This document shows, piece after piece, positions 7,055 to 62,566 of a stretch of DNA of 64,000 bases. This stretch comes from Mayamaea pseudoterrestris. Its lineage: Eukaryota. The position numbers were made by a program, and so were the translations under genes. The stretch spans positions 124,001 to 188,000 of the forward strand of contig BROI01000027.1 of the NCBI GenBank assembly GCA_027923505.1, written 5' to 3'. Numbering within the stretch: the first letter of the stretch is position 1; the number at the start of each line of letters is the position of its first letter. The notes beneath the pieces were generated by a model, which was given only the letters and a program-made list of their open reading frames with translations, searched no databases and had not been told where the DNA came from.

Positions 7055-7234
7055 TAAAGATCGCGGCGCGGACGCACTTCAATTTTGTCACGCGCTGCGC
7101 ATCCATCTCTCTCTCTTGGAACGAGAGTCGACCTTCGCCTCTTATCTCTTGCAAACGTTGCCCAATCCTATTGCCGGAACATAGATTCAAGTCTATACTT
7201 GTCTGTTACATTCCATTTTTGATAACCTTTAACC

Positions 7235-9344
7235 ATGAAATTTTCACAGCTCGCCGTCCTTGCCGCCGTGGCTTGCCCTGCATCGGCTTTTATGCCGCAG
7301 AAATTCGCTAGATCTCACACCACGAAAGCGTTCATGGCCATTGAGGATCTAGAGAGCAAGCTTTTCAACCCGGAACCGCAAAAGACTGCTACTGCCAACA
7401 AAAAGGAGCAAACCAAGAAGGAAGCTGCGCCCAAGAAGCTGGCGGCTGCTGCCTCCAAACCAAAGAAGGAGGAGTCACTCCTTTCATCGTTTGATGTTTC
7501 GTATCCGACGGCAACAAAGGCTCCACCAGCAAAGGCGGCCAAGCCTGAACCCAAAAAGCCGGAAGTGAAAAAGCCAGAGCCCAAGGCTTTTGCCAAGCCA
7601 GAGCCAAAAGTCAAGCCAGTGCCTGCACCCAAGCCTGCTCCGGCTGCTCGGGTCGCTCCGGCGCCAAAGCCGGCCCCCAAGGTTGTACAGAAGGCTGTCG
7701 AAAAGGCCAAGCCATTTGCTCCAAAGCCAAAGGTTGCCAGTCTTGCTCCACCACCAAAGGCTCCAGTCAAGGCTGATCCCAACGCCGTTCCAGCAGGCAT
7801 TGCCCTTGGCGCTGCTCCGTTGATTTTGGCGCCACTCTTGGCCCTCGCCGCGTCGCGCGAAACGCTCTCCAAGACGGCTGCTCGTCGTCAGCAGATCCAA
7901 AATGAGGTTGCCGCGAAAAAGGCAGCTGAAATCAAGAGACAAAAGCAAGCTGAAGTTGATGGTGGTGCATTGACAAAAGCACTTGTAAGTATTTTGTTGA
8001 TTGCAGACGAGATGTCGATTCTGGCGCAATCAAGCTTACACTTTTTCCTTTTTATTTTTTTTTGGATCATAGGGTTACCTTGGCGCTGCTGGCCTTTCGG
8101 TCGGTCTGATTTTGGCTCAGGGTCCAGTCGGAGAGGGTCTTCCATCATTTTCGGCCCCGTCCATTAGTCTTCCGTCGGGAGTCGGTGGTGCGAAGGTTTC
8201 CGAGTCGCGACCTGCCAGTGACGCTGACGTTCAGCGCGCCAAGCTCCAGCAAGCACAGAAGGAGATTTACGCCAAGAAGCGAGCTGCTTTGGAAGCCAAG
8301 AAACAGGAAGCTGCCAAGGCTACCGCAAAGGTCACCAAGAAGGCCGCTGCTGTCGTTTCAAACGAGCCAAACTCGTACGAGAATTTGTTGCAGCGGGCCA
8401 ACATTCCTTCCGTGGAAGCTCGCAAGGCCCGAGCGGAGGAGAAGAAGGCAGAAAAGGCTGCTGAGAAGGCAGCTGTTCAAGCTACACTAGCGGAAGAAGA
8501 TGCCAAGAAGGCTCTCGCAGAAGCAAAGATCAGTGCCGAGCAAGTGAAGAAGGTCAAGACCGAAGTTGCAGCGGCCGCCAAGGCAGAGGCGGCAGACAAG
8601 AGAGCCGCTATTTCTGCGGAGGCTCAATACAAGGCCGAGGCTGCAAAGGCGGCCAAGCAAGAGAAGGAGGCTGAGAAGAAGAACGATGGTGCCGCCGAGG
8701 TCAAGGCAGCCGAAGAAAAGGTCAGAGCGGAAGAAAAGGCGCGTGCTGCTGAGAAGAAAGCCAAGGAAGATGCTATCAAGGAAGCTAAGCTAGCTGAGAA
8801 GGAGATTGAAGCTGAAAAGGCCGCTGCTGCTGCTCAGAAGAAAGCACAGGAAGAGGCTGCCAAGGCACAGGCCGCTGAGAAGGCTGCCGCCGAAGCTGAA
8901 AAGGCCGCTGCTGCCGCTCAGAAGAAGGCACAGGAAGAGGCTGCCAAGGCCAAGGCGGCTGAGCAGGTGGCTGCTCCGGCACCCGCACCAAAGCAAGCCC
9001 CAGCTCCCAAGGTGGCCCCAGTTGAGTCCACCACAAACGCTGCGCCGGTTCCAGAGGCCGCACCAAAGGCTGCTCCGGTTGCAGAGGCTGCACCAAAGGC
9101 TGCTCCAGCTCCAGTGGCACCAAAGGCTGCTCCAGCTCCAGTGGCACCAAAGACTGCTCCAGCTCCAGTGGCCCAAAAGGTTGCCACCGTTGTACCTAAG
9201 GAAGATCCACGACCTGCAACTACTGCGCCTGCCAAGGGATCTGGTTTGGGTGTCGTCTCAGGCAGCGCATCTGGCGGCAAAGTGCAGCCGAAGGAGGAGG
9301 TCAGTGATGATGTCAAGGCCTTCCTCAAGACGCTTCAAAAGTAA
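7235..9344 (+). CDS. Plastid-targeted Ala/Lys/Pro/Glu-rich repetitive membrane protein (about 673 aa); intron 7985-8072
   Basis: Signal peptide ending ASA-FMP. A phase-0 GTAAGT...TAG intron fuses ORFs 7235 and 8112. Two hydrophobic segments are separated by a charged helix. Confidence 0.82.
8808..9175 (+). repeat. Coding tandem repeats: 84-bp duplication (EAEKAAAAAQKKAQEEAAKA) and 27-bp APKAAPAPV units
   Basis: Copies start at 8808 and 8892. About three GCACCAAAGGCTGCTCCAGCTCCAGTG units lie at about 9090-9170. Confidence 0.85.
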
Positions 9345-9509: not shown

Positions 9510-11113
9510 CTACACGGCTCCATGAGTCATCATTACATTGGCAATGCGAAGAAAACCTCGAATGTTTGTACCCGCAAACAAGTCGCCTCGTGCATTAAAT
9601 TCCGTGGCAGTGCTCTTGACATCCTTGTATATTCTGGCAACATTCTCCTGCAAGTCTTGGTCTGTTGCCCCAACGCCAAGCGCCTGCGAAATGGCCGATC
9701 CAGTCAGTGTCATGTTGGATGGGCCGTACATTAGTCCGCGCTTTTTGAGAATTTTGCGTGCGCTCGCGTTGACAGCCGAGTGACCTCCCTCAATGATACC
9801 TTGGCAACCATTGTCGGCTAATTTCGTAATTGCCACAGCGTCAATGTCGTTCATGGCACCGCATGGAAAGCACAAGTCACATGGAATATCCAAGATTGAC
9901 TCTGGGTCGTTGAACTTGGCCGTTGTCGACGAAATAATGTACCGACCGAGTAGAGCACCGCGTTCATTCTTGATCTTATTAATGACCTTGAGCTGAGCCT
10001 CTGATATACCATCTGGTTCATATACATGTCCACTCGGATCGGAGAAGGTTACGGGAATGGCGCCATATTGCAATAGTTTCGTCGCCAAGTGACGGGCCAA
10101 CTTGCCCGATCCAATGATCAAGCAGCGCTTGCCTTGCAGCGAATCACCCTTGTCCTTTAACATTTCATTCGCAAAGTGAGCAACGCCATAGCCAGGCGCC
10201 TGAGTAAAATATGATAGAAAGATTTTGCATCAGTGCTAGTTCATGGTATTAACGAATGTACGGAGAACTCAGCATACACGAACAAACGCACCTCTGCTTG
10301 ATCCGGTGACAGGAAATACCTGCCTCCAGCACTAGCCCTGACGTTGATTCGCTTGTACTGTCCAAACATGTACCCAAGTTCCTCCGGACCAACGCCCATT
10401 CCCATGATTGGATAGTCCTGCTCGGGTCCCACGTACTTGGCAAGCTCCGTCATGAAGGATTGGCAAAATCGTTGCATTTCACCCTCACTCTTGTCGAGCG
10501 GATGAAAGTCTGCTCCTCCAACCGCCGCTCCCAAGTCATATCCAGTGACAGCATTTGAAAAGAGCGAGTTGAACGCTAGTGACTTCATCACCGAGTCATT
10601 CACGTGATAACCAAAGTGCAACTGTCCAAAGTAGGGTCCCAGTGAACTGGAATACTGAATGCGATATCCTCGATTCATGCGCACCACGCCCATGTCATCA
10701 ATCCAGGCGACCCGAAACTGCACGAACCGTTCCGGTTCAATCAACGTTTTCGCCGCAAAGGCATATTTTGGGTTGCGATCAAAGATTGGCGACAAGCACA
10801 TTACATTACTCGACACGGCATCAATGAATTCAACATTGTGCGAGTCTCGTCGCTGCGCTTCCTTCACTAGTAGTTGCGCCGCTTCCGTTCCCGTCTTGAA
10901 TCGCACGTCACCAAGACGTCGAAAGAGCGGCTTGTTGCGGTAGCTCTTGCTCACCTTCATGGTTTGGTGAATGCCGCCATCGACCGACACCAAGCTTTTG
11001 CGGCGGTCGTCAGTGTTAGTGGATGATGATGAAAACGACAATCGTTTACTACCAGTGGCAAGGGTTGCAAGTCGACTCTTGCTGCTTCGACGAGAAATTG
11101 CTGAAAGCATCAT
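9510..11113 (-). CDS. NADP-glutamate dehydrogenase-like protein, probably catalytically inactive, mitochondrial-type presequence; intron 10200-10291
   Basis: EPERFVQFRVAWIDD, NRGYRIQYSSSLGPY, EMQRFCQSFMTEL, ELGYMFGQYKRI, EAPGYG (across the splice), IIGSGKLA and NIRGFLRIANVMMTHG match GdhA-type proteins. Confidence 0.88.
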
Positions 11114-11461
11114 GGTGCCGACTAGAGTTAATATGGTCTTGTTTGGCTATAGCTGCTGTCGATAATTCCTTCCCTTGGTTGTCGGGGAAGTCGACGTTCC
11201 GTCAACGCGCGATCTTTGACCCTCATGTCACACCAACCCAGAACCTGTTTTGTGAATGACGTGTTACTCGTGAGTCATTTCATCATCCAGTCCTGACCAC
11301 TATTCGTATTCATTCGTGTCGCTGAGCTTTCCATAACGTCAAGCGTGCCGCCATGATTATCGGCGTGGATGAGGTGGATCTTTCGCCTCGTCGAACGCAA
11401 CATCAATATGCGCGCTCTCACAATTTAAAAAGTAGTTGCTGCCATTGACGAAGGAAAAAAC

Positions 11462-12809
11462 ATGAAGTTCTTCAATCTACTAAACTTGTTGCTGCTGCTG
11501 GTGGCTGGCGTTGCTCATTCTTCTGCAGCTGAATCGACTGCTGCATTTCGTCCACGACGAGCCTCATCCTTGCAGAAATATCAGCTGGAGCAGCAAACAA
11601 CAGTGCTGCAACCTTCTTCTGATGTTTCAATGACAGTACCTTCAGCATTATCAAATGATGTTTCGCAAGTTGCTCGGGGAGGAGCCATTTCAAATAGCCT
11701 TGCGCAGACGCTCAAGGTCGGCTTTTACTTTGGACTCTGGTACTTGCTCAACATCTTCTACAACAGTACGTAACTGTATTGGCACTTTCTTGTTTTGATC
11801 ATGTCTCTCAATTACTCACTCCGATATTTATCTCTTCTATATATCTACAGTCTTCAACAAGAAGCTCCTCAACGTCATGCCCGCGCCACTCACCATTGGC
11901 TCGATCCAACTCGCCATTGGTTCCGCCTACGTTGCCGCACTCTGGTTGCTCCGCCTGCGACCAGCACCCTTTCTCAACTCGTCCGACGCTATCAAGCAGT
12001 TTGCCCACGTTGGATTCTGGCATGCCTTTGGACAGGAGACTACCATGGTCAGTCTTTGCGCCGGTGCTGTTTCCTTTACGCACATTGTCAAGGCACTAGA
12101 ACCATTCTTTTCCTCCGTCGTGTCGGCGCTAGCATTCAAGCAGTGGATGCCACTTCCAGTCTACCTTTCGCTCGTGCCAGTCGTTGGTGGTGTTGGTTAC
12201 GCCTGCTTGAAGGAGAGCGCCTTTTCCTGGTTGGCGTTTTCCGCGGCCATGCTGAGTAACTTGGCGTTTGCGCTGCGCGCCGTCTTGAGCAAGGTGGCCA
12301 TGGGAACGGCGGTCACGAGTGGCAGGAACTTGACGTCGCCAAACGTGTTTGCATTGGTGACCATGTTTGGTTTACTGTTTAGTATTCCCATGGCGATTGC
12401 TGGAGAAGCTTCCAGTGTGGCTGGCATGTGGAGCAAGGCGTTGGAGTCCATGCCCAAGAAGCAACTGGTGCAAGCCATTTTGGTGTCTGGACTCTTTCAC
12501 TATTTGAACAATGAAGTCATGTATCTTGCTCTTGGCAATGTTCATCCGGTCACCTTGGCGGTTGGAAACACGATGAAGCGAGTCTTTATCATGGTGGCAT
12601 CCGTCATGGTGTTCCGCAACCCAATCTCGCTGCAGGCTGGTATTGGATCAGCGGTTGGTATTTCGGGCGTTCTCGTCTATTCGCTGGTTAAGCAGCACTA
12701 TGAAAAGGTAGATGTCAAGGTTGCGGACAAGGTAAAGTCGACGGCGCGGCAGACAAGGGTGGGCGTGACCAAGACGATTCCTTCCAGAGTGTCAGTTCGC
12801 AGAAAGTGA
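11462..12809 (+). CDS. Triose-phosphate/phosphate translocator family protein of the complex plastid; intron 11766-11850
   Basis: Signal peptide, then YFGLWYLLNIFYNIFNKK (after splicing), AVSFTHIVKALEPFF and AVGNTMKRV. Confidence 0.93.
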
Positions 12810-12925: not shown

Positions 12926-14134
12926 TCAAAAGTCTTCCTCGGCGTCTTCAAACTCGTCGTCATCATTGTCAGTAACCTTTTCTTGCGCCTTTGCTTGCTC
13001 TTCTGCTCGCTTTGCATCCTGCATACTCTGCGCTTGTGCGAAATGGAGAGCCTGCTGGGCCTTCCATCGAAAGGCAATGTATATGGATGATGCCAATGCA
13101 AGCCATGTGAACACGTAAAGATTAGAGCCCGGCGACACTCGAACGTTGCCCGTTAATGTATCCACAAGGTCCATGCACGGCATTGATACGCTCGAGTTGG
13201 ACACCTCGTCAAAGAATCTCACACTGCAATTCGTTATTCGTGTCGAATCAATGCCAATGTTGCATTCATTGCCGACAATGGTTGATCCGACGCCTCCCTC
13301 CTTGGTGATGACGGCAGTAGTCACAATCCATGCCAAGACTGCTGCCCCACAAAACAATAGTTCCGTCCAGCCGCCTTCGGAACAAAACTCGATAAAGTTG
13401 TAATGCACAAAAATCCATCCCAGTGACAAGATGGTACTCGCAATTCCAACGGCGATCCCAAGCGCTGCATCCCCTTGATCCGCATCCGGCGGATGAAGGG
13501 CAATCACATTGATGGAAGTTCCAAGCACCACCAGCGATGAAAGTAACAACACATACCATCCCTTTAACGTGGCGCTAACGCCCGTGAGTTCGGAAATGCT
13601 CAAAATGTCCTTGGCAGCCGACCATTCATTGAGTGTATAGACAATGGACGCGAGAATGGCCCAGACGGAAAGGTAAATGTTCATGGTCAAGTAAGCCAAA
13701 CCATCCACTTGCGTAATATATGCAACTAGACAGATCCAAAGCAATGTGAAAAAGCCCAATACGTAGCCTTCCAAATATCCATCCATCGATTTCATATAGT
13801 TGAACATTTCAATCAAAAGCTGCAGACGATCGAGCGCCAAGACAATCACAGCGAACACCAAGGTGATGGCGCTAAAGGCGGCTGCCACGCCAGGATTGCC
13901 GCGGATATCATTGTTGTGCGATATATTGCTGACACTGGAAAGGATAATGATCGCCGTCAAACCGATGAGACTGTATCCCTTGTAGCGAGGATTGTAGTCA
14001 ATCGGTTTGGGAGGAGGTGCTGGTTTGCTAGCATTCTTCTTTGATTCATCATTGTTGTCTGCAGCAGCAGCAGCAGCCGCAGCAGCAGCAGCAGCAGCAG
14101 CAGCAGCTGGTTCTTCAATGTTCGATTCGTTCAT
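12926..14134 (-). CDS. Multi-pass membrane protein (about 8 TM, tandem MARVEL-like), unknown function
   Basis: 402-aa ORF with two repeats of four hydrophobic helices, each ending in an N(I/L)Y..W motif, and an acidic tail. Confidence 0.75.
   Translation of the reverse strand: MNESNIEEPAAAAAAAAAAAAAAAADNNDESKKNASKPAPPPKPIDYNPRYKGYSLIGLTAIIILSSVSNISHNNDIRGNPGVAAAFSAITLVFAVIVLALDRLQLLIEMFNYMKSMDGYLEGYVLGFFTLLWICLVAYITQVDGLAYLTMNIYLSVWAILASIVYTLNEWSAAKDILSISELTGVSATLKGWYVLLLSSLVVLGTSINVIALHPPDADQGDAALGIAVGIASTILSLGWIFVHYNFIEFCSEGGWTELLFCGAAVLAWIVTTAVITKEGGVGSTIVGNECNIGIDSTRITNCSVRFFDEVSNSSVSMPCMDLVDTLTGNVRVSPGSNLYVFTWLALASSIYIAFRWKAQQALHFAQAQSMQDAKRAEEQAKAQEKVTDNDDDEFEDAEEDF
14060..14107 (-). 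repeat. (GCT)n trinucleotide tract encoding poly-Ala (16 residues)
   Basis: Near-perfect GCA run on the + strand with one interruption. Confidence 0.92.
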
Positions 14135-14349
14135 ATTAATGTTTACCAGAGACTACGCTTTACTTTGGGGTGGAAGGATCTCATGGTGATGAAGGATGAA
14201 GCTGCTGCTGCGTTTTCGTTTTCGATGGGAACCGCGCCGTCGCGCGTCGCACCAGGGCATTTCAGTCACGCTTCCATGTCGCATAGTGAGATTCACCTCA
14301 GCTGTGATAGGTTCATTTATGGTAATTTTATGGTAAGCGTTTATCAGTG

Positions 14350-21259: not shown

Positions 21260-24200
21260 CTAGTCTAGGTCCAGTGATGCGTTAAATGCAACGCCTCCGA
21301 AGTTGGTAGACGATTGGGTGCTTTTAGACGCATCATCCATGTCCCAATTGTTCAGTCCAAATGTTTTCGCCTCATAGACAGTAGGGTAACTTGTTCTTTC
21401 TCTTAGAATGCGCGCCTCGCGAAGACGCCTCAACCGAATCATTAGTTTTGAATGTTCGTCACTGAAGCGACTGAGACTATTTGGTCGAGTAATTGCTCGG
21501 TCACAAGAATGGTAATTCAGTGACACATCGATCAGCGTAGAATTCAGTTTGGACGTACGAACCGCTTGCTCTCGAAGTGTTCGCGACAAGGGAAATCCAG
21601 AAGAAGAAGATTGCTTCTTGTACATGCCGTTGGTGGGATGAGAAGTTAAGGTCATTGCGGGCTCCTGAACCATGCCCCGCCCAGATGCTTGTCTGTCATC
21701 ACGTGCTTCAACGTTAGCGTTGTGTAGATGAGACGACAACGTCTTTTTCGAGTATCGTCGCGTCGTCGGAACTAGTCGCACCGATCTATTGCTCCTTGTG
21801 GGAGTAATAGCCCTTGACCTTTCGGTGGTTTTTGACTGCCCATCTGACTGCGCACCTGCAAATGTCGAGGCATCACTATCGATGTCAAATATATCTTTTT
21901 TTTTTGGCAAGCCATCAGACGACTTTGGAAACAATGACTCCATTCGGAATATGTCCCAATCTAAATTTTGAGTTGTAGGCGCCGCGTCCCATCCGCTGGT
22001 TTTATTAGCCGACCGAACAAAGAAACCATGTGCGCTCCCGCTGTATTCATCAAGCAAAACATGATCTCGGTTGTCCCGTGCCAGGAGAGGAATTGCGGCT
22101 TCAGATAATTGGCTGGACGACTCATCGCCGCCCCGATCTGAAACATATGCCGAGCTCGACGTTTTTGAACTATCATCGACATATCCTTGATTTTCTTCAG
22201 CCTTGCTAATAAGCGCTGTTGGCGTCGTTAAAATTGACACGTCGGCAATGGACAAGTCAAGCGTGACACCATCTGAGCTGCCATCAAATGATCGGCTCCC
22301 ATCAATCCCATCGTCTTTCTTCTCTTCATTGGCAAAATCCGGAGAGCACTTCGGTCGCTTTTGCTCACAGTTATAAGAATGATGGTCATCAGCCTGCTTA
22401 CTAACCAAGAAGGTTGCCGCCATTGCACGCGGCACGGCACGCGTTATTATTGGCTTTGCAGAATTTTGCGCATCGTCGACTCTGGTATCAGCGCACCTCG
22501 TAGTCCCTTTAGCACTTCGCCAAAGTCTTGCTGGAGGCGATGTATCATGCTTTGCCGCCATTCTTGCCTTGTTCGAGAATTTGAGTAGGCTCGCAATCAT
22601 TGTCAAGCTTGAATTCGAATACCGAGACAGCGACGTGTCAGATATCGCCGCCGATACAGGACGGAAAGAAGGAACTATGACTGCGCTGTGTATTTCGGTT
22701 GTGCTCATTGCGGAAACAGGAACTTGCTTCATCGGGGTTGGCCGCACGATACAAGGAGCATCAGAGTTTTTCGCAATCATCATGCTAATTCCTTCGTGTA
22801 CTTCAGGTTGAGTGTCAACTAAAATCCCTTTATTTCGCTGCAGGCGACTGCAATCCCCTGCACAGTTGTTTGTTTCATACCCTGTACATTCATCACCAAT
22901 AGCTTTCGGATTTGCTTCCCTTTGTTCCGATTCCAGACTTTTACTTGCTGCAGTATCATGCATCGATCCGCCATCACATATTAGTCTTGCGGCCGACTTC
23001 GTGTTGGCGCTTTGCGTCTCAACTCTAGACAACTTTTGAAGGTTGATAAAGGACGTTGCAGCGATGCTCTCGTCATGAAGCGCCTTCGCATGCAGCAATT
23101 GCTTGTGCACATTTTGAGCATCTGCAGTTAAATCTAATGCCCTTAGTGATTGCGACCCAACAGGACGACGAGCTTGACGATAACCAACGACAGTTATCGG
23201 CGCATTCTTTTGAAGGTTGTGCGTAGCCAAGATGTCTTTCTCTTTATTGTCCCACCCTGTCTTTGCAAAACTTTTCGCGACACTGTCGCGGTAAACTTCA
23301 ATACCACTTCTTTGAGGCAAAGATGGACGAGTCGCTTTTCCAGCATTTTTATCCGCGAGCCCTACAGCACCAAGCCATGTCTGCGCACTTGATTTTGTGG
23401 TTTCGTTCGAAAAACCGCTTGGATCATCAGTCCATGAACGTGCCATAACAGCTGATATTTGATCACCAAGCTTCCCCCGTGATTTTGTGTTCCTTGGCGT
23501 GCCAACTGACGGATCCCTCGCGCTGATCTCAAATGTTTGAATACGATCTTTGATTGAGAAGGGAATATCACTTATTTGCTCCATTTCGGTCGCTGAACCT
23601 GCCTCGCCTGCAGATTGTTTCTCATCTGAAGCAATTACCTTCATCTCAACAGAAATCTCTTTGGCAACCTTCGTGGCCGGTCGTTTCACGGCCACTGATC
23701 CAAATTTTAAGACCGTCTGTTGAAACTGTCGACAAGGTTCCGCCGCCTTCGGTTTCTGATCAAACTTCGCCCGCATCAGTCTGACTACTGATGGCTTTGG
23801 GCAAGGCTGGGCATCATAAATCTCCCTTAAACTTTTAACGCTCACATCATCGTCGCCTTCATTCTTCTCTTCAACTAGACCAGCTGCCGCTTGCTTGTTT
23901 TCAAGCGCGGTTTTGATGCTCTGAACGTCAATGTGTTTTTCACTGTCGACGCAGTCCGCCTGCGCAATTTTAGGCTGTAAATGCTGAGCCGCCAGCAGGT
24001 TGGATTTTTCTAGCACCTTCGCCTTTGTCGATTGCTTCTCCGCCAAAGCTGCGAGATATATCTGAGCAGGAGTCGGACGTGACTTTGCATCGGTTGACTG
24101 ATTTTGGTTACTACGACTTGCAAGCGACCCTGACACTGGAAGTGACGATGCGTTGTTGAACAGTTGTGAGGGTAAGCTAAAGCGGTTTTTCGACGTTTCA

Positions 24201-25765
24201 TCATTCGCAACTTCAGCCATAGCTGATCCATGCATGAATGTTGCGCAATCACTCGCATCGACCGATGACTGAAAGGACGAATTAAAGGTGCTTGCGAAAA
24301 TGGAGTCGGGACTTAGCATGCCCTTTGGCAAATCATCCTTCATCGTGGCATACCTTGGCGGAGGCGTCAAAACATCCAACGTTGCGGGAGATGGGCAAAA
24401 TACTGGGTCGGGAGTAACGTTGGAGGATGCCATGCTAGTTGTCGTGACACCTGGCGGTCGAAAAACGTAGCGTTGAATCTGAGGCGGTGACAACATGTCG
24501 GAAGCGATTCCAGGCTTTGCAAAGTTTACATTGCGAGTGGGCATTTGTGACGACAGTGCCGGCAGCGAAAGTGAATTGCGGAATGGATTACCATCGTATC
24601 CTGCTTGTGCTTGATGGAATCGCTGCTTGACTGCCTCGGACGACAATGGCTGGTCCAAGGCAATCTCCACTCCAACTGATGATATACTGCGCGATGGTTC
24701 ATTTGAATTATCGTCGCTCGAAAGAAACTTTGCTTGCATTCTTTGGACATGCTGACCCAATCTGCCTACCGATTTCGTAGCTGAAATGGATACGGCATGA
24801 CCTTCGGGCAAAACGTGTAACCTGGTCGCTGATTGCTCCTGTTGATTGAAGTATTGTTTCTGCCCCTGGGACGACACAACGTCATCATTTGAGTCTACAC
24901 TTGTTGCATCTAAATACTCCTTTCCATGTTTTAAGTGATACGGCTCGTCAACATGGTGTTGCTGCCTGCGACGAAGCTTCCGTCGCGCCACAGCCGTCAC
25001 TGCCTCATTTTCCACCAAGGCATCCAATCGATCATGCTCGCGTTGGAGCTGCACCTGCATTTGCTCAATGCGTCGGAGCGCCAAGTCAATGGCTCGGTTC
25101 GTGGCAACGTGAGTGGATGCCTGCGTTGATGGACAATGGGTATAGGCTGCTTCGGATCGATTTGTCGTTGTAAACCTAGCAGCATTGTCGAGTCTCACAG
25201 AGCTGGGAAAACGTAGCTCATCGAGCGATTGATCGTTATAGCTAGTGTCGTTGCCTTGTTGAAACAATTGTCGAATGGGAGCATGTCCAAGGATCGTATC
25301 CTTCAGTTGATTGCTGACATTGTCGCGTTCTCTAATGTGATGCGCGTCAATGACGACGGAATCCTCCACTATCCGTGAAAGATTTGAAGTGGACGCCTTT
25401 TGAAACTCTACTTTGCTAGTCGAACGACTTGGACTGATGGTTTGCTCACTGCCGGGGTTTAATTGATGGTTGCTTCGCAGATTTTGTTGTTGTTGCTGAC
25501 TGTAAATTCCTTGCTGCTGTCGAAAATGCCCTTGCCGCAGGCTTTCCGGCGTCAGAACATCGGGACTCTTGGATGGAGACAATGACATGTCACTTAGTAT
25601 ACTCTGGTCATATGTTGGATCCGTTTTGTTAGACTTTGTCGCACTGTGAGGTGAGGAAGATTGATGCTCGCGTTGAGTCGTCGCCTGCTTCCTTCGCATT
25701 TCCAATGCCGCCGCACGCTTTCGCTTCCAAAGCCGGTTCTCCAGCAGCCTCGATAAACTGTTCAT
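21260..25765 (-). CDS. Large Ser-rich, probably disordered hypothetical protein (1501 aa)
   Basis: Uninterrupted 4.5-kb ORF with short coiled-coil stretches. No domain recognised. Confidence 0.75.
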   Translation of the reverse strand: MNSLSRLLENRLWKRKRAAALEMRRKQATTQREHQSSSPHSATKSNKTDPTYDQSILSDMSLSPSKSPDVLTPESLRQGHFRQQQGIYSQQQQQNLRSNHQLNPGSEQTISPSRSTSKVEFQKASTSNLSRIVEDSVVIDAHHIRERDNVSNQLKDTILGHAPIRQLFQQGNDTSYNDQSLDELRFPSSVRLDNAARFTTTNRSEAAYTHCPSTQASTHVATNRAIDLALRRIEQMQVQLQREHDRLDALVENEAVTAVARRKLRRRQQHHVDEPYHLKHGKEYLDATSVDSNDDVVSSQGQKQYFNQQEQSATRLHVLPEGHAVSISATKSVGRLGQHVQRMQAKFLSSDDNSNEPSRSISSVGVEIALDQPLSSEAVKQRFHQAQAGYDGNPFRNSLSLPALSSQMPTRNVNFAKPGIASDMLSPPQIQRYVFRPPGVTTTSMASSNVTPDPVFCPSPATLDVLTPPPRYATMKDDLPKGMLSPDSIFASTFNSSFQSSVDASDCATFMHGSAMAEVANDETSKNRFSLPSQLFNNASSLPVSGSLASRSNQNQSTDAKSRPTPAQIYLAALAEKQSTKAKVLEKSNLLAAQHLQPKIAQADCVDSEKHIDVQSIKTALENKQAAAGLVEEKNEGDDDVSVKSLREIYDAQPCPKPSVVRLMRAKFDQKPKAAEPCRQFQQTVLKFGSVAVKRPATKVAKEISVEMKVIASDEKQSAGEAGSATEMEQISDIPFSIKDRIQTFEISARDPSVGTPRNTKSRGKLGDQISAVMARSWTDDPSGFSNETTKSSAQTWLGAVGLADKNAGKATRPSLPQRSGIEVYRDSVAKSFAKTGWDNKEKDILATHNLQKNAPITVVGYRQARRPVGSQSLRALDLTADAQNVHKQLLHAKALHDESIAATSFINLQKLSRVETQSANTKSAARLICDGGSMHDTAASKSLESEQREANPKAIGDECTGYETNNCAGDCSRLQRNKGILVDTQPEVHEGISMMIAKNSDAPCIVRPTPMKQVPVSAMSTTEIHSAVIVPSFRPVSAAISDTSLSRYSNSSLTMIASLLKFSNKARMAAKHDTSPPARLWRSAKGTTRCADTRVDDAQNSAKPIITRAVPRAMAATFLVSKQADDHHSYNCEQKRPKCSPDFANEEKKDDGIDGSRSFDGSSDGVTLDLSIADVSILTTPTALISKAEENQGYVDDSSKTSSSAYVSDRGGDESSSQLSEAAIPLLARDNRDHVLLDEYSGSAHGFFVRSANKTSGWDAAPTTQNLDWDIFRMESLFPKSSDGLPKKKDIFDIDSDASTFAGAQSDGQSKTTERSRAITPTRSNRSVRLVPTTRRYSKKTLSSHLHNANVEARDDRQASGRGMVQEPAMTLTSHPTNGMYKKQSSSSGFPLSRTLREQAVRTSKLNSTLIDVSLNYHSCDRAITRPNSLSRFSDEHSKLMIRLRRLREARILRERTSYPTVYEAKTFGLNNWDMDDASKSTQSSTNFGGVAFNASLDLD

Positions 25766-26092
25766 GTCAGTATACTCTCTATCGCTGTATATATCTACAA
25801 CCTACTACTGCAGATTCTCGCATCGTACCAAGCCTGATCCTGAGATGATCCCACAGAAACGGAAGAGAGGCGCGGCGCACCAAAATGCATCCAACGCTCG
25901 CTCGCGCGCCGGTCGGTCGGTCACAGCTAAACGAGTACCGTTGCGTCACCGTCTTACGAGCCGCCACGTGACGAACGCCGCGACACTCTTTCGAACGAGC
26001 GTAAACGAGTTGAAGCAATACATTTGACTACACAAGTACCTTGCGATATTCGTAAATCTTCTTACAAACATACACACACGACGACATTAAGC

Positions 26093-29973: not shown

Positions 29974-30081
29974 TACCGCTGCGAGTCTTAATCGCCGACT
30001 GACGTCTCGGCAGGCCATCAAAGATTCGTCTCGTCGTCCCTGCTACTTCCACTTCCACTTGCAACCAGATCTGAGTCTGCT

Positions 30082-32274
30082 ATGAATCAATTAAAGCAAG
30101 AAATACTTGTGCTATGGCCAGTTCTGCTTGCTTTACAAATAATCACCGCTGATGCCTGGACAACCTGTCGTCATTCACTGTCGATTCGATCATACTCGCC
30201 ATCTTTTCGTCGAGCTGTAGTTTCTTGTGCGGCACGACGCAAGAAACGAGATGATGACGATCTTTTTGACTGGTACGACTCGGTCGATGCTGATGCTACG
30301 CCGGAGGACGTGTTTTGGTCGGAAATGCAAAAGATGACTCTTTCGCGCGGTGCGACCAATGGCGACGCACCAACGCCGACATGGACATCGGCTGCTCAAG
30401 GACCAGCGCCAGCTCCAGAAGCAAATGCTGAATCCTTGCCATTAACTATACCTGCTACTATCGGAGTTACTGCGGCGCCAGCATTAGCACCAGGAACTCC
30501 CATGACTACCTCAGCATCGTCGTCAGCAGCCAGTCGATCTTCCTCCTCATCAATGCCTCCTCCGCCCATGGCATTGCCCATTCAGCAGCAACCTCGTCGA
30601 CAGAAAAGGGAACAACAAGGCCAAAACAATCTAAGAAGCGTCGACTCCATACTCTCCGAATATGCAGCCTTTGCCGTGGCCGACAATTGGCTCGACGATG
30701 ACTTGCGCGTCATAATGGACCAGCAAGCCAACAACGAATCCGACGGGGAGGCACTGGCGCTCGCGCAGCGCATGGAGGAGCAGGGAACAAACAGCGACAA
30801 TTTGGCCTACATGCTGCAGTCCGATGACCCTTGGGCGCAGTATGGCATGTCGGCTGAACAGGCCAAGGAGGATCGTATTGTGATTGATCCGAGTAAAAAT
30901 AAGGAAATTTGGTATGATCCAGAAACAGATGATGGAGTTGACGCTGCCAGGGAGGAAGCAGAAACGTTGGCGCGACTGTCAAACATAAAGGCTTCAAGTC
31001 CGAGCTTGGATCGAGCAAGAGACAATCCAAAAGCTAAGGCGTTCTTTCAGCGAGAGCCAAACTCTTTGGCAGGATGCGATCGAATGTGGGTCAGCGCCGT
31101 CGACAATGCTTGCTTTAGCAGTTTGCGCGGGTCATTTCGAAACTATGGTGTTGATTTCTGCTGCAATTTTGGCGACTTTGAGGATGGGTGTATAGAGGAC
31201 AAGCTTGTAACGATTGAAGACATGGCATCGTTCAAGGCACGCAAGGTTTATGAAGCCACGGGGCTGCCATGTCTTGCGACTCGTACATCCTTTGAGATTG
31301 AGCCAATTCCACAGTTTGACGCTGGTAAACGACCTCCCAACGCGCGAGTGGCATCCGGCTACCGATTCAATGACGTTGGAGCGCATGTTGACTATATTTG
31401 CGATGCCATGAAACTCTTCTCGGAACATTCGCGGGTGACGCAGTTCAAAACCTGCATGTGCTACTACGACGGCGAAATGGAGGTGTACGACTATGGCATT
31501 CTCGATTGCGATTTGATATTTGCGCATTCGCTGCGAACCTTTGTTCCCGTCGCTCAAGCGCAGCATGAAATGATCAAGACGCTTGAACTGACGTTCGGAC
31601 TTGAGTACATGCCCTGGCTAAACGCCAAACCGACTGATAGTCCTGCTAGCAACAAACCTACTGTTGGCGCCGCTAGTTTGAAACTCCGTGATCGAGTACT
31701 GAAGGAAGGCAAGGTACTGCCAAACAATATCGTCGATGTATCGGCGTTTATGGACTCGATGGTCGACGTGGACTTGATGGAAGATTGCGCCAAGGAGCTA
31801 TCGGAACGATGCATGACCTTGCAGCCTACCAAGATTTTGACAGTGGCTACAACCGGTCTAGTTATTGCGCTTCCTATGGGAAAGCATTTGAGTGTTGGTG
31901 TCGTGTACGCTCGAAAGGAGCGCAACATGGTCATGGCCGATACGTACCACGCAAGCTACTCCAGCAGGACGGTCGGAAAGAACCGCGAGCTGCTGGTCAG
32001 TACAAAGCACTTGGACGAGACGGATCGAGTATTAATCGTTGACGACTTTTTATCTAGTGGATCGTCACAGGAGGCCTTGTTGCGGATCGTGGCCGAATCT
32101 GGCGCCACTGCCGTCGGTGTTGCCGTTCTTTTAGAAAAGGTTTATGAAAGCGGCCGACAATCGCTAAGCGGCTACGATGTGCCGGTGTTTAGCGTTTGCA
32201 GAATAGCATCGGTGCAAGATGGAGTTATACAAATGTTGGAGGAGGAAGGATACATTCAAACAGCAGTCAGCTGA
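30082..32274 (+). CDS. Probable plastid protein: disordered N-terminus, degenerate Ham1/ITPase-like domain, xanthine phosphoribosyltransferase-like domain
   Basis: Signal peptide ending ADA-W. C-terminal LRDRVLKEGKVL..VSAFMDSMVD, VYARK and PRPP motif VLIVDDFLSSGSS resemble bacterial Xpt. Confidence 0.82.
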   Translation: MNQLKQEILVLWPVLLALQIITADAWTTCRHSLSIRSYSPSFRRAVVSCAARRKKRDDDDLFDWYDSVDADATPEDVFWSEMQKMTLSRGATNGDAPTPTWTSAAQGPAPAPEANAESLPLTIPATIGVTAAPALAPGTPMTTSASSSAASRSSSSSMPPPPMALPIQQQPRRQKREQQGQNNLRSVDSILSEYAAFAVADNWLDDDLRVIMDQQANNESDGEALALAQRMEEQGTNSDNLAYMLQSDDPWAQYGMSAEQAKEDRIVIDPSKNKEIWYDPETDDGVDAAREEAETLARLSNIKASSPSLDRARDNPKAKAFFQREPNSLAGCDRMWVSAVDNACFSSLRGSFRNYGVDFCCNFGDFEDGCIEDKLVTIEDMASFKARKVYEATGLPCLATRTSFEIEPIPQFDAGKRPPNARVASGYRFNDVGAHVDYICDAMKLFSEHSRVTQFKTCMCYYDGEMEVYDYGILDCDLIFAHSLRTFVPVAQAQHEMIKTLELTFGLEYMPWLNAKPTDSPASNKPTVGAASLKLRDRVLKEGKVLPNNIVDVSAFMDSMVDVDLMEDCAKELSERCMTLQPTKILTVATTGLVIALPMGKHLSVGVVYARKERNMVMADTYHASYSSRTVGKNRELLVSTKHLDETDRVLIVDDFLSSGSSQEALLRIVAESGATAVGVAVLLEKVYESGRQSLSGYDVPVFSVCRIASVQDGVIQMLEEEGYIQTAVS

Positions 32275-41652: not shown

Positions 41653-42501
41653 TCATTCTCGCTTAGCCTTTGGTAACTTGATGCTTTGAACATCGCTGTT
41701 GCTCAGCTTCTTCATGCGACCCTTGATGTTAATCGTCGTAATTTCAGCTTCGCGTCCGACCAGCCGGCCCTGTATGGTCTTGGGTTTTTGCGCCTTGTCA
41801 TCCATATACACAACAGAAACATCAAAGCCCTTGTATGAGTTGAATTGTCGAGCCGATAGACCGACGAGTTCATCGGATGCACCGGGTGTCGTGACTTCAA
41901 TCTCATGCGTTTCGGCAATGGAGGCGCCAAGTCCGTCGTCATTTAATGCGTCACTGACGGCTCGCGCTAGCATGGACAAGTCGACGATCTTGTTGCTGCT
42001 GCTAGATGAGTCATCGTAATCCATGTCAACGGCATCCAAATTATCGGCTTCATAGTCGTAATCCTCGCCATCCTCCGCCTCATCATACACGTCGGCGTCG
42101 TCGACTTTATCAAGATTCTCCATGTCATCGTCCGAATTGCCGTCGTCGTCGTCGTCTTCATCATATTCATCATAATATTCCTCGTTTGTAATTCCAACTT
42201 GCGTTTCGCCACTGACGGTAATGACAATTCGCCCCGGCTTCCACTTGATGTCAAGTTGGTCGACGCGAGCACCCACCATGAGCGCAGCGCGGGCAATGCA
42301 GTCGTTTCCATAGTCTTGATAGTTGGTGGGTAATGCAGCAAACAGTCTAGTCAAAGATTGAAAATGATGGTCTTTTGTGATGATATAGCTCGTCCTTGGC
42401 GATGGCCGATCGAAACGAGAAGGATAAGGTGCAAAGGAATCGACTGCGACAATCACCAGATGCAGAATTAATAGCGCCACGTCTATCCTTGACAGTCCCA
42501 T
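41653..42501 (-). CDS. rimP: Plastid ribosome maturation factor RimP-like
   Basis: Signal peptide ending VDS-FAP, then ARAVSDALND, HEIEVTTPG (RimP LEVSSPG), FNSYKGFDV and GRL, with an acidic insertion. Confidence 0.78.
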   Translation of the reverse strand: MGLSRIDVALLILHLVIVAVDSFAPYPSRFDRPSPRTSYIITKDHHFQSLTRLFAALPTNYQDYGNDCIARAALMVGARVDQLDIKWKPGRIVITVSGETQVGITNEEYYDEYDEDDDDDGNSDDDMENLDKVDDADVYDEAEDGEDYDYEADNLDAVDMDYDDSSSSSNKIVDLSMLARAVSDALNDDGLGASIAETHEIEVTTPGASDELVGLSARQFNSYKGFDVSVVYMDDKAQKPKTIQGRLVGREAEITTINIKGRMKKLSNSDVQSIKLPKAKRE

Positions 42502-42858
42502 TTCAAGCACTCGTTTTTTCGTCACTTGTCGCGAGTGTCGACGAATGATGATGGGTCTTGTGTCTTGTGGCTTGTGGATGTTGCTGACAGTGATGATGGT
42601 GGATGCCGTAAAATTCAAAAAGGTCGCAACGGTTTAGCTACCTGTCGTGAATGGCGGGAACCACATCAGACGCTGCGCTCGACCTGAAAGGTGATAGTAC
42701 CAATGCGCAAAGATACTCATTATAAGCACAGAGTTATGCTGGCTGAACTTCATGAGTCGCGTCTGCTTGATGGTATCTGCGCGGAGTGACGAGCTGGAAG
42801 ACCCATACCGATATTCCATTGCTCGAAGGTCATTACGTCTCTGGAGTTTCTAAAGCTT

Positions 42859-48562: not shown

Positions 48563-49402
48563 CTATCTTTTTTCTGCCGCAACTACATAGTCAAACCCCA
48601 GCTGCAATCGACCCGATTGCTGCGTGGCTTCCAAAGCTTGCGCATCAAGCTCGTTCAGCGCTTGCGCCATGCCGTCGGCCAGATGGCTGTTACCAAACAG
48701 CTTGAGCTTGCTTCGTCCAACATTGACTTGCTTCAAAATAGTTTCGTATCGATAAAGGATTGGAAACTGAAAGGAATTCACAAGTTGCAGCGATTTGCAA
48801 TCGTTTACTTGCTGCTTGATCCATTCGAGGGGATACTCGCGGTAGCATCGATGATTGGCAAGTAGAATGCACGCATCGCGAGCCTGACGAACTTTGCAAA
48901 TGACGTTCGCTGGACCAGAAACCGAGTCTGGAATGGGTTCCAGTCCAACAATATACAAACGGCCTCCTGGTTTCAAGTATTGGCAGAGTAGCGGAATCAT
49001 TTCATTCTGTCGATAGGGACTGAAACCATCCATGGCACCAATAAGATAATCAGCCAAGATGACATCAAACTGCTGCTCGAGAGTCACTTGCTCCTTTGGA
49101 TCATTTGGAAACCAATTTCCAATCATGACTTGTCCCATTTCCGATACTCCCAACACTTCCGCCTCCATTTGCACCTGGCGTTGCATGGTGGCGTCGGCTG
49201 TCATGGCGCAAAAGTCCGTCAAGCCGCGACTCGACAAGGTGGCGAGCCAGCGGAGCGAGTGCATGCCAGTGCCGGCATCCAAGACGGACCCAAATGGAAT
49301 GTCTCCCTGTAGATTTTCAATGCATCCAAAGAGTGAATCGTCCTTGCCGTAAACGAGGCGAGCGGAGGCTTGTGCTTGTGGGGATGACGACTTGGCTGTC
49401 AT
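48563..49402 (-). CDS. Class I SAM-dependent methyltransferase-like protein
   Basis: VLDAGTG, FDVILADY and LKPGGRLYIVG. Confidence 0.82.
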   Translation of the reverse strand: MTAKSSSPQAQASARLVYGKDDSLFGCIENLQGDIPFGSVLDAGTGMHSLRWLATLSSRGLTDFCAMTADATMQRQVQMEAEVLGVSEMGQVMIGNWFPNDPKEQVTLEQQFDVILADYLIGAMDGFSPYRQNEMIPLLCQYLKPGGRLYIVGLEPIPDSVSGPANVICKVRQARDACILLANHRCYREYPLEWIKQQVNDCKSLQLVNSFQFPILYRYETILKQVNVGRSKLKLFGNSHLADGMAQALNELDAQALEATQQSGRLQLGFDYVVAAEKR

Positions 49403-49589
49403 GGCAAATATTAATGGCGCAGCACTAAACTGGATTGTATAAATTATAGTGGTCACTTGTCTTTTTAATCCTTTCATCAAGTAAGAATACGCGCCATTGA
49501 TAAGCCAAGACTTTAGGTGTACAAGGCAAACGAAGGTGATACATCTCGACCATCGTTTCGTCGCAAGACGATAGCGAAACGATTGTCAA

Positions 49590-49967
49590 TCATGACAAGG
49601 CAATAGTACGAAACGAGTGCCAGTGAAAACTACGTCATTAGGCAATACTGTAAAACGAGTGCCAGTGAAAACTACGTCAAAAGGCAATATTGCGAAACAA
49701 GTGCCAGTGAAAACTACGTCATTAGGCAATAGTATGAAACGAGTGCCAGTGATAACTACGTCACAAGCAGACGAAACGAGTGCCAGTGTCAAAACGTCAC
49801 AAGGCAATAATACGAAACGAGTGCCAGTGTCAATTACCTCATAAGGCAATAATACGAAACGAGTGCCAGTGTCAATTACGTCACAAGGCAATAGTACGAA
49901 ACGAGTGCCAGTGTCAATTACGTCGCAAGGCTTTAGTACGAAACGAGTGCCAGTGTCAATTACGTCA
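49590..49967 (+). repeat. 42-bp tandem array B (9 units plus partial; fifth unit is 36 bp)
   Basis: Units start at 49590, 49632, 49674, 49716, 49758, 49794, 49836, 49878, 49920 and 49962, with the same consensus as array A. Confidence 0.97.
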
Positions 49968-50042
49968 TGCTGCCCAGCTATCGCACCGTTGATTGCCATC
50001 ACCGCGTCGTCCATCGGCTCATCACTTTCTTTCGACCATGAG

Positions 50043-52088
50043 ATGATGAGGACGCATCATCGACGACGACTCTCCTTCCTATCATCAATCATTAGACATA
50101 TATACATGATTGGAATAATATCCAGTCAGTCGCGTGCTTTGGGATTTTCATTTAGAACGTCTCAAAGAACATTTTGGCGACAACAATGCCGACGAGCAAT
50201 CTTCTACTCGCATAATTCTCCTTCCGTGAACACTGATACGCCTATAACCCAAGCGACTCTTACAAGCAAAGACGAAACGTTTGAGTTTACGTCAACCGAG
50301 TTTGTCGAGCATATTGTCGTGCAGAAACAAAACGTTTCAGCCTGTGACATTATCGAAACGGTGCTGCAGCGTCGGCGCGATAATCAACTCACAGTCACTA
50401 ACCTGTCAGCCACGGAGCTCCTTCACATTGGAGCCGTTTGGTTTCTGCCGGCTCACATGCCCCGAGATCCGTCGTTGGGGCATAAGCCAATGCGTCTTGA
50501 GAAATCTCTCACGCTAAATGTTTCCGACTATCTACGCATTCATCATCATCCTCGGCGATTTCCAACCGTCTATGACTACGATTGGTCGCTCCACTGCAAT
50601 GAAACGACGAACCAAGATGCAAAGCAACTACCAGGAGTCATTGTCGCGCAAGACGAGACGAAAGGATATATCATTATTGACAAGCCAGCGGGCGTTCCGG
50701 TGCACATGACGGTGGACAATCGGCTGGAAAATGTTGCCGCGTGCTTGGCAAGTGCAAGGAGACGCTTGCTGGTTGACAACGACGACGGCCAAAGCAACGA
50801 TGTCTATGTGAGTACGCCGCAGCGACTCGATCAAAATACGTCCGGTTTGTTGGTGGTGGCATCGTCCAAGCCGTTTGCACACTATTTTGCCAATTTGCTG
50901 GCCCGCAAGACGGAGAATCAATTGGCTTCCAACAACAATTCCACTGTCACTGCTGACGAAACTCCAACTGAATCTATTCACAAGCTATACAAGTGCTTGG
51001 TTTGCCTTTCGCAACCATCTGCTGCTGCTACTACGGAAGGTGGTGGAACTGACAAGCAACAATCATGGTCGGTTCAGAAAGCTTATTCACAACTGCAGTC
51101 ATATCAACTTAAAAAAGTGCGACACTACTTGGAACCGTCCATTCGCTCGCCAAAGCGCTTTGTCGTACAACCACCAAGCAATGAAGCATGGCCGGAATGC
51201 TTGCTACGAATTCGCAACGTCGGTCCGTTGGGTGCATTGACTGGTAACGCTGCTGCGGCATCACTCCGAGCATCCTTGTGGGAGTCGCACGACTTGCCCC
51301 CAACTCATTGTCACGCTGTCGTGGAACTCGAGGTGGAGCTACTCACCGGTCGAACACATCAAATTCGCGGTCAACTTGCTGCCATGGGCTATAGCTTGGT
51401 CGGCGACGCGCAGTATGGAGGTGCAACGCCAGTGGATATGGAGTATGGAGTTCATGTATCGGCACCGAGATTGGCACTGCAGTGTTGTGAGCTGGAGTTT
51501 ATTGATCCAGATGTTCGACTAAAAGAAGACGGCACTGTGTATTTAACTCGGTCTCATAGGTGGAACAAGTTTCGAATTGAGGCGGCATGGTGGACTAGGG
51601 CCATGGAGGAATATCACTTGTCAATGCAGTCCTTGTCCAGCGATGAGGCGACCACTTTTGCTGATGATGCAGCGTTCGTTGCGTTAACCAATGGAACTCA
51701 GCAATCAACTAACCGAAAGATAGCTCGTCGAGACTTGCTTCCATCTCGTATCCAGCTATCTCCGGGCAAGAACAAGTACGTCCTTGTGAAGGCCACCCAT
51801 CCGGATGAGCGCGAGGAAGTCTGGTTTGTCAAGAGTGCTGCTCCAAATGAATGCGGCGGGCCATACCATGCGAATGTTGCCCAGGATTTGGGGGAATGGA
51901 TTACTGCTGCTGGTTATGACGCGGACGTTACTGGCGGAGGACGCATCGACTACCAACCAGACAGTAACAAAGCGGTTGTTTACGGGTTTAGTTACGGATA
52001 TGGCAAAGGCGACCACATGAAGGCGGCTAAACTCGTTAGTGAATGTGGAATTGATGCAAGCTACGACTACTCGGATGAATTGTATTAA
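50043..52088 (+). CDS. RluA-family pseudouridine synthase fused to a C-terminal Janus/Ocnus (PHPT1-like) domain
   Basis: IDKPAGVPVH, QRLDQNTSGL, LLTGRTHQIR and LVGDAQYG, then GKNKYVLV, YHANV, GGGRI and VYGFSYGYGKGDH. Confidence 0.88.
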   Translation: MMRTHHRRRLSFLSSIIRHIYMIGIISSQSRALGFSFRTSQRTFWRQQCRRAIFYSHNSPSVNTDTPITQATLTSKDETFEFTSTEFVEHIVVQKQNVSACDIIETVLQRRRDNQLTVTNLSATELLHIGAVWFLPAHMPRDPSLGHKPMRLEKSLTLNVSDYLRIHHHPRRFPTVYDYDWSLHCNETTNQDAKQLPGVIVAQDETKGYIIIDKPAGVPVHMTVDNRLENVAACLASARRRLLVDNDDGQSNDVYVSTPQRLDQNTSGLLVVASSKPFAHYFANLLARKTENQLASNNNSTVTADETPTESIHKLYKCLVCLSQPSAAATTEGGGTDKQQSWSVQKAYSQLQSYQLKKVRHYLEPSIRSPKRFVVQPPSNEAWPECLLRIRNVGPLGALTGNAAAASLRASLWESHDLPPTHCHAVVELEVELLTGRTHQIRGQLAAMGYSLVGDAQYGGATPVDMEYGVHVSAPRLALQCCELEFIDPDVRLKEDGTVYLTRSHRWNKFRIEAAWWTRAMEEYHLSMQSLSSDEATTFADDAAFVALTNGTQQSTNRKIARRDLLPSRIQLSPGKNKYVLVKATHPDEREEVWFVKSAAPNECGGPYHANVAQDLGEWITAAGYDADVTGGGRIDYQPDSNKAVVYGFSYGYGKGDHMKAAKLVSECGIDASYDYSDELY

Positions 52089-56270: not shown

Positions 56271-56621
56271 AATAGTACGTACAAAGCTGGAAATGTAAGA
56301 GTAGGAGAGCTGAATGGCTCGGGTAAAAACGTCACCTGACTACGCTTGGATTGCTACAATCCATGCAGCACTTTTAAAGACGCTTGCGTAACAAACTATA
56401 AGGTTTGACATACATTAGTTGCTCACAACAGTCCCCTGATCATACACAAAATTGATGTCGCTTCAGACCTATCTAGACCGCTGCGACACCGACGTAAATC
56501 GCATTCGCCACAATGAGATGACGACGAATGCGTTTGTTTTGATCAAATCTAACATCAGAAGAACCAAGCTAGGCTATAAAACACATAAAGGCTATAGAGT
56601 GCTTACTCCTTAACTTCCAAA

Positions 56622-62109: not shown

Positions 62110-62173
62110 GGTGGCATTTACTAGTATGCATCCGACGATTATTTTTACGGCTCGACGACTCATGCAGTAAATT

Positions 62174-62434
62174 ACGTCACGAGGCAATAGTACGAAACGA
62201 GTGCCAGTGAAAACTACGTCATAAGGCAATACTATGAAACGAAAGCCAGTGAAAACTACGTCATAAGGCAATAGTACGAAACAAGTGCCAGTGTCAATTA
62301 CGTCATTAGGCATTAGTACGAAACAAGTGCCAGTGTCAATTACGTCACAAGGCAATAGTGTGAAACAAGTGCCAGTGTCAATTACGTCACAAGGCAATAG
62401 TGTGAAACGAGTGCCAGTGTCAATTACGTCACAA
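62174..62434 (+). repeat. 42-bp tandem array C (6 units plus partial)
   Basis: Units start at 62174, 62216, 62258, 62300, 62342, 62384 and 62426, with the same consensus as arrays A and B. Confidence 0.97.
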
Positions 62435-62566
62435 TCTGCATCTTGGAATTCGCTCGAACTGCGCCGGTTCCATCTCATTCGAACGCGATACATTTTCCAT
62501 TCCTCTGATCAAACTTCGAGCACAATGTCCGAAACTATTACTACAAACCCTATATCATAATAAAAC

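Follow-up and report, generated by a model that had tools for sequence, protein, structure and literature searches.

The gene described here encodes a member of a clade of glutamate dehydrogenase (GDH) homologues that is real, old and misannotated, and whose members, in ochrophytes and oomycetes, lack the catalytic residues of the enzyme. We call these proteins pseudo-GDHs. The gene lies in a stretch of 64,000 nucleotides from Mayamaea pseudoterrestris, referred to below as the window. A sequence-only reading of the window had proposed a pseudoenzyme and, with the catalytic set gone and the fold retained, this status is borne out at the level of sequence. We consider it very probable that GDH activity has been lost.

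Gene structure and active site

The gene model comprises two exons separated by a short intron (Table 1). This intron is one among six in-frame GT/AG pairs and was chosen through alignment to relatives; the joint seen in run contigs matches it. Four public sequencing runs carry the pseudo-GDH stretch, all from one study, with the library type unrecorded and none of the four labelled as RNA. Contigs from three of them skip exactly the 92 nt of the intron, and a contig of the fourth spans it. The simplest reading is that the intron-skipping contigs are spliced cDNA, an intron-less allele being possible. Between the run contigs, which could be alleles or come from close strains, and the window there are 37 coding differences among the 40 of 60 differences listed, 35 of them synonymous and 2 non-synonymous, which corresponds to a rough but one-sided pN/pS of about 0.02. 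As judged from these contigs, the gene is shown to be under strong purifying selection. The open frame and the contig joint agree with the earlier description of ORF and intron as intact.

Aligned with solved GdhA-class enzymes, pseudo-GDH has F162, S186, V198 and G238 at the positions of the two carboxylate-binding Lys, the catalytic Lys and the catalytic Asp. These sites are labelled K89, K113, K125 and D165 in what we take to be Clostridium numbering. The four motif changes noted earlier (GPYKGG to GPYFGQ, FKNSLT to FSNAVT, GGGKGG to GAAVGG and DVPAGD to DYPIMG(M)) were read correctly, as was the absence of all three substrate or catalytic Lys and of the Asp. The claim that the TGK..GGS..R segment is missing needs correction: the segment is not absent outright, its place before the A-T-G-Y-G motif being taken by a linker that has diverged and is shorter by about 5 residues, and its WGG part is still present in non-diatom orthologues. 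The losses go beyond those that the sequence-only reading noted. In the pocket, Ala236 and Gly237 are replaced by I and M; the nicotinamide Thr (P276) and the Asn of the Rossmann fold (K307) are gone too, and neither the GANMP nor the NAGGV..S motif is left unchanged. A splicing error concealing a missing segment can be ruled out, since all three Lys sites and the Asp site lie within exon 1 and the contig joint agrees with the model.

In the available text of PMC1716157, which also gives the roles of the Lys-rich motif, the alpha-carboxylate and catalytic Lys are present in all GDH subsets, and in that of PMC7326016 the GDH mechanism is carried out by the catalytic pair of Lys and Asp. The alignment shows that canonical glutamate deamination or amination chemistry would not be possible for pseudo-GDH.

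Table 1. The pseudo-GDH gene and its features, in window positions
Feature	Position	Strand	Basis or remark
Pseudo-GDH gene	ATG at 11113, stop codon ends 9510	minus	two exons, 503 aa
Exon 1 (aa 1-274): presequence, N-terminal arm, GDH domain I	10292..11113	minus	gene model, Pfam, alignment
Presequence-like N-terminus, about aa 1-27	11033..11113	minus	composition; boundary approximate and putative
Clade-specific N-terminal arm, aa 47-78, VH..W-x-x-K-P-L-x-R-R-x-G-D-x-x-F-x-T-G-x-E-A	10880..10975	minus	per-site conservation
F162, gamma-carboxylate Lys site	10628..10630	minus	alignment, per-site table
S186, alpha-carboxylate Lys site	10556..10558	minus	alignment, per-site table
V198, catalytic Lys site	10520..10522	minus	alignment, per-site table
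K208, domain I Lys	10490..10492	minus	per-site table
I236-M237-G238 replacing A-G-D	10400..10408	minus	catalytic Asp gone, small pocket-lining residues replaced by larger ones
GT..AG intron, 92 nt	10200..10291	minus	gene model; run contigs skipping exactly 92 nt
Exon 2 (aa 275-503): Rossmann domain II, C-terminal helix, stop codon	9510..10199	minus	gene model, Pfam, alignment
Rossmann GxGxxA fingerprint, Asn to Lys	10095..10112	minus	alignment, per-site table
K351, NADP 2'-phosphate Lys position	9969..9971	minus	fixed offset from PMC1716157 numbering

Fold and nucleotide site

The protein retains both Pfam domains of the family, ELFV_dehydrog_N on exon 1 (119.7 bits) and ELFV_dehydrog on exon 2 (133.1 bits). 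A model of the orthologue P0016, used as a 74% identical stand-in (pLDDT 88.7), has the two-domain GDH fold and its best structure matches are of the GdhA class, with TM values of 0.8-0.9 to GdhA-class targets. The beta-sheet and helices of domain I are conserved to the same degree as in active enzymes. A complex prediction for two copies of P0016 (aa 45-506), run without alignment, gave a median of 0.26 for a mark of 0.32, which speaks neither for nor against a homo-hexamer.

Pseudo-GDH shares its Pfam domains, fold, GxGxxA and 2'-phosphate Lys with the GdhA-class NADP-GDHs (EC 1.4.1.4, NF006929; e.g. 5ijz, 3r3j and 9yis), and identity to intact members of this class is 36-41%. It differs from them in the absent Lys and Asp, the larger pocket residues, the lost nicotinamide contacts and an extra N-terminal arm. 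Moreover, three of its orthologues fall below the NCBIfam equivalog cut-off of 536 bits (P0016 354, P0210 445, P0414 449), whereas intact GDH controls score 641-700 (P0413 691, P0427 700).

Conservation was compared in 130 pseudo-GDHs, a diatom-heavy sample (96/130), and in 98 intact controls. Twelve of 13 substrate or nicotinamide sites are variable in the pseudo-GDHs (top-residue share 0.33-0.82), and these sites are 98-100% fixed in the controls. The Asp site, which is G in 99% of pseudo-GDHs, is the sole invariant one among the vacated sites, and across the clade we found no polar residue that has become newly fixed in the cleft. Because the vacated sites vary and no such residue has been fixed, a true pseudoenzyme is favoured over a new catalyst.

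The positions that contact the adenosine and the 2'-phosphate, with the GxGxxA fingerprint and the SD..G loop among them, are kept in the same sample (K208, G304, D328 and G331 in 130/130, A309 and K351 in 128/130, S327 in 122/130 and G306 in 121/130). K208 presumably sits near the NADP 2'-phosphate. Part of the site is eroded in ochrophyte members, where the Ser that follows SD persists in 29%, the Arg at site 357 (2'-phosphate) in 21%, the nicotinamide Thr in 7% and the Rossmann Asn in 3%. A Lys at the position equivalent to K351 is tied to NADPH affinity in the available text of PMC1716157. From the retained positions we infer that domain II would still bind NADP(H) or a related adenine nucleotide.

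The N-terminal region

The first 45 residues, with 6 R, 3 K, 13 S, 3 D and no E, are presequence-like by composition. The start of the protein is unconserved, has a pLDDT below 50 in the P0016 model and has presequence-like counterparts in orthologues of the clade. The sequence-only reading is thus supported in describing a presequence-like N-terminus, and a mitochondrial location of pseudo-GDH appears probable.

The presequence-like segment is followed by an arm that is not present in canonical GdhA. Residues 58-78 form the best-conserved stretch of the protein (mean top-residue frequency 0.89 in the 130 pseudo-GDHs), and in P0016 the arm is modelled confidently from about residue 60. Among the fetched proteins of at least 400 aa, 137 have the arm without the catalytic GGxKGG, 145 show the reverse, 59 have neither and a single one, P0413, has both; the arm pattern included a variant added after inspection of P0413. 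Outside the arm, R88, R113, K122 and R145 are further clade-specific invariant basic residues. An Atlas search returned no look-alike of the arm scoring at least 0.9, the top score of 0.83 belonging to short unnamed clusters.

Distribution and origin

Among the best 120 of 7,773 matches to the single sequence (68-94% identical), Lys occurs at site 162 in nine, no Lys is found at sites 186 or 198 and no Asp at site 238. A profile search gave 1,716 matches; none of the best 120, of which 23 were common to the first set, has Lys at any of the three sites or Asp at the Asp site. Named members lacking the set include pennate and centric diatoms, Triparma, Ectocarpus, Undaria, Discosporangium, Tribonema, Chrysoparadoxa, Heterosigma, Octactis and Ochromonas. 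Saprolegnia, Achlya, Phytophthora, Globisporangium and Pythium, together with deeper forms, were added from 50%-identity representatives and from another, third search that started from 16 deep members; of its 108 new rows, 98 were intact GDHs, which we used as controls. Besides diatoms, the clade thus covers bolidophytes, brown algae, raphidophytes, chrysophytes, dictyochophytes and oomycetes, with orthologue identities of 48-74% from diatoms to oomycetes. The orthologues outside diatoms rule out a diatom-only innovation, and the original description of a diatom protein was too narrow, as the same residues are absent in ochrophytes and oomycetes. Source annotations nevertheless name many members NADP-specific GDH (in Ectocarpus, Fistulifera, Achlya and Globisporangium, for instance). 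In the open literature we found no account of this clade, of missing catalytic residues in stramenopile GDH homologues or of an assay; subscription journals lay outside this search and may hold a prior report.

The evolutionary history of the clade was examined in a tree of 56 chosen rows, built by a careful method on the 343 columns left after removal of the arm and active-site columns, with two rows flagged as long branches. It supersedes an earlier quick-method tree that had included the arm columns. All 25 chosen stramenopile-type pseudo rows form one clade (support 99/96), whose ochrophyte part (100/99) roughly tracks the organisms, with Triparma as sister to diatoms. The sister group consists of three intact GDHs (P0413, P0416 and P0457), and its union with the pseudo clade is supported at 100/96. 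At least two of these three have presequence-like starts. P0413, which is intact, combines such a start with a partial N-terminal arm, and a sister of this type is likely to give a picture of the ancestral state. The best explanation of the tree is that the loss would have arisen once, before the split between oomycetes and ochrophytes.

Further degenerate GdhA homologues, all without the arm, were seen among the canonical rows of the quick tree (P0259, P0261, P0274, P0283, P0284, P0285, P0288, P0298, P0334, P0335 and P0320); these scattered forms were excluded from the 343-column tree. In P0320, the degenerate GdhA appears by eye to be fused behind EF-hand and calponin-homology-like segments.

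A comparable loss is found in land-plant GDH4, a putative NADP-GDH that is also a derivative of the GdhA class (P0247, P0280, P0464 and P0466). Euphorbia and fern members lack the catalytic Lys and Asp, whereas the Sphagnum orthologues retain the Asp as well as the three Lys and group with the vascular-plant forms at 100/100. In place of a presequence and arm, GDH4 carries an N-terminal zf-C17orf113 domain, on vascular-plant and Sphagnum members alike. A shared origin was rejected, since a constrained union of GDH4 with the pseudo clade gave a p-AU of 8e-5. On this phylogeny, the residues were lost a second time, independently, in vascular-plant GDH4. Its activity and function are called unclear in the available text of PMC7733991, to which the accessible part of PMC7285260 adds nothing on activity; parallel loss may offer a sequence-level explanation.

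Other GDHs and the question of a partner

The sequence-only reading had proposed pseudo-GDH as a partner of active GDH. In the sense of a hetero-hexamer, our searches of the Mayamaea genome do not favour this proposal: four heuristic searches of an assembly of unstated completeness found no second small-type GDH, and the only other GDH found was of the large type. PF02812 had one match among two candidates, the pseudo-GDH gene itself, and PF00208 had two among three, pseudo-GDH and the large-type gene (L005:3746-6673, on contig C17 of G000). An intact GdhA query matched the pseudo-GDH gene only, and a degenerate pattern for the first Lys motif had no match in this genome. As a control, the same tool gave 25-bit matches for another family, so the search is not blunt, although it is heuristic. 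In the large-type GDH, the only intact GDH found, the motifs are complete and the N-terminus is presequence-like. The genome also holds two genes for the large subunit of GOGAT (L008 on G000:C14 and L009 on G000:C6).

For Phaeodactylum tricornutum, the available text of PMC6779911 lists a small mitochondrial GDH A, a small cytosolic GDH B, an NAD-type mitochondrial GDH C and a two-subunit mitochondrial GOGAT. In their accessible parts, PMC4588885 and PMC7408324 discuss only the other two GDHs of this diatom, not GDH A. As described there and in the models, GDH A (Phatr3_J50971, GLUDH_m) resembles pseudo-GDH in being a small NADP-type protein with a predicted mitochondrial location and an N-terminal extension, and differs in being modelled as an active enzyme. 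By elimination, it is probably the pseudo-GDH orthologue. Its expression, given in one row of PMC6779911, lies at 93-113 when N is lacking and at 34-100 when ammonium, nitrite or nitrate is supplied. If GDH A is indeed the orthologue, the GLUDH_m reaction of the genome-scale model and the published role of GDH A in mitochondrial ammonium re-assimilation or release (PMC6779911) need revision. We found no complexome of P. tricornutum in the open literature.

Comparison with known inactive dehydrogenases

Catalytically dead GDHs are known from Thermus. According to the available text of PMC9570180, GdhA of Thermus thermophilus is the inactive regulatory subunit of a GdhA/GdhB hetero-hexamer, and it resembles pseudo-GDH as a dead homologue under selection, a description that for pseudo-GDH comes from sequence comparison. 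Nevertheless, it belongs to another small-GDH class (E 1e-7 to exon 1, as against 1e-50 for the GdhA class), is prokaryotic, has the same-class active subunit GdhB as partner and is not known to carry an N-terminal arm. Allosteric activation by leucine is a mark of the Thermus hetero-oligomer. The stramenopile clade is a separate, old, eukaryotic case with an arm of its own and no same-class active partner found in the Mayamaea genome. The Thermus alanine-dehydrogenase homologue ADLP offers a closer parallel to the mode proposed below: in the accessible part of 10.1101/2025.10.31.685773 it is inactive, with its catalytic Lys lost, keeps NAD(H) binding and regulates an unrelated CoA transferase. 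It is of another family, and its binding and partner have been shown whereas those of pseudo-GDH are deduced. In Bacillus subtilis, the small GDH GudB binds the two-subunit GOGAT in a GudB-GltAB complex (10.1101/2021.04.12.439528, available text); GudB differs from pseudo-GDH in being active and of another small-GDH class.

Possible function

Tentatively, at somewhat under an even chance, we favour the view that pseudo-GDH is a mitochondrial NADP(H)-binding pseudoenzyme, a nucleotide-sensing regulator that would regulate or scaffold a partner other than a GdhA subunit. Its ancestor would have been a mitochondrial small NADP-type GDH in which a rudimentary N-terminal arm was already present. 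Domain II would bind NADP(H) or a similar adenine nucleotide. GDH-type domain closure, together with the conserved arm and surface, would then relay the nucleotide state to a partner other than a small GDH subunit. The mode would be that of the NAD-sensing alanine-dehydrogenase-like pseudoenzyme of Thermus, unlike that of Thermus GdhA. Partnership with the large NAD-GDH or the two-subunit GOGAT is possible, and these would be the leading candidates because of analogy and a shared compartment. A more specific version, in which a dead GDH became a stramenopile-wide mitochondrial NADPH/NADP+ sensor switching the glutamate node (two-subunit GOGAT or large NAD-GDH), seems unlikely. If true, it would parallel, in eukaryotes, the counter-enzyme complex of bacteria, with the GDH turned into a pure regulator, and the 'mitochondrial NADP-GDH' reaction of diatom metabolic models would be nonexistent. 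Against sensing, the kept Gly, Asp and Ser positions may be purely structural.

The same data could be read as pointing to a role without sensing, with pseudo-GDH acting through its basic arm and surface as part of a mitochondrial complex or as a factor in the assembly of one, or as an RNA binder. Active mitochondrial GDHs bind RNA in mammals and Leishmania. The best-conserved segment is the new Arg/Lys-rich arm, R88, R113, K122 and R145 are invariant and the nucleotide site is partly eroded; on the other hand, the near-complete retention of K351 and K208 goes beyond the obvious needs of a scaffold, and the arm had no Atlas match at the threshold used. We regard such a role as plausible, if somewhat improbable. 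A neofunctionalized NAD(P)-dependent oxidoreductase, with another substrate and another catalytic set, would account for the retained Rossmann fingerprint and 2'-phosphate Lys, for the invariant Gly at the Asp site and for the frequent His166 (97%) and Glu162 (61%) of diatoms. It is quite unlikely, as H stands at site 166 in only 54% of the other ochrophytes, oomycete-like rows have R there and M, I or L at site 162, the nicotinamide contacts are lost and the cleft has no clade-wide new polar residue. The case for a regulatory subunit of the Thermus type, forming a hetero-hexamer together with an active small GDH, draws on the GdhA/GdhB precedent (PMC9570180; 10.1101/2025.10.31.685773, both in their available text), on a domain I sheet and helices as conserved as in active enzymes, and on the intact sister clade with presequence-like starts, an early hetero-oligomer being conceivable. 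We consider it very unlikely: the heuristic searches found no active small GDH in the Mayamaea genome, and those elsewhere are either listed as cytosolic (P. tricornutum, in the available text of PMC6779911) or, like the intact Heterosigma protein P0427, have an N-terminus that is not presequence-like.

A weak but real GDH, as the source names of members imply, is highly improbable. Recombinant brown-algal GDHs, of this or another paralogue, have reportedly been assayed. The scores of pseudo-GDH members (354-449 bits, against 641-700 for intact controls) speak against such an activity, as do the presence of the Lys in all GDH subsets (PMC1716157) and the mechanism carried by Lys and Asp (PMC7326016), both as far as the available texts go. 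Lastly, the probability of a decaying duplicate or pseudogene is negligible; active-site loss alone would suggest it, and it is ruled out by the selection figure and the clade tree, with the open frame, the spliced contigs and the orthologues conserved from diatoms to oomycetes also against it.

Neighbouring genes

The genes beside pseudo-GDH encode a transporter of the TPT family, an Ala/Lys-rich protein and a kinase, and we saw no functional link among these neighbours. The triose-phosphate-transporter-family gene (11429-12809, plus strand), with a signal-peptide-like N-terminus, is divergent from pseudo-GDH. A gene convergent with pseudo-GDH (7226-9344, plus strand) encodes a repetitive protein rich in Ala, Lys and Pro, which starts like a signal peptide and matches no Pfam family. 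Elsewhere in the window, long frames without Pfam matches lie on the minus strand at 12926-14152, 21260-25801, 41653-42633, 48563-49585 and 61393-62508. On the plus strand, three frames show unusual domain combinations: a frame of 760 aa (29992-32274) ends in a C-terminal phosphoribosyltransferase domain, a single frame (49845-52088) joins pseudouridine synthase and Janus/Ocnus, and another (56598-59498) joins an FSH1 hydrolase, an RWD domain and a GTPase.
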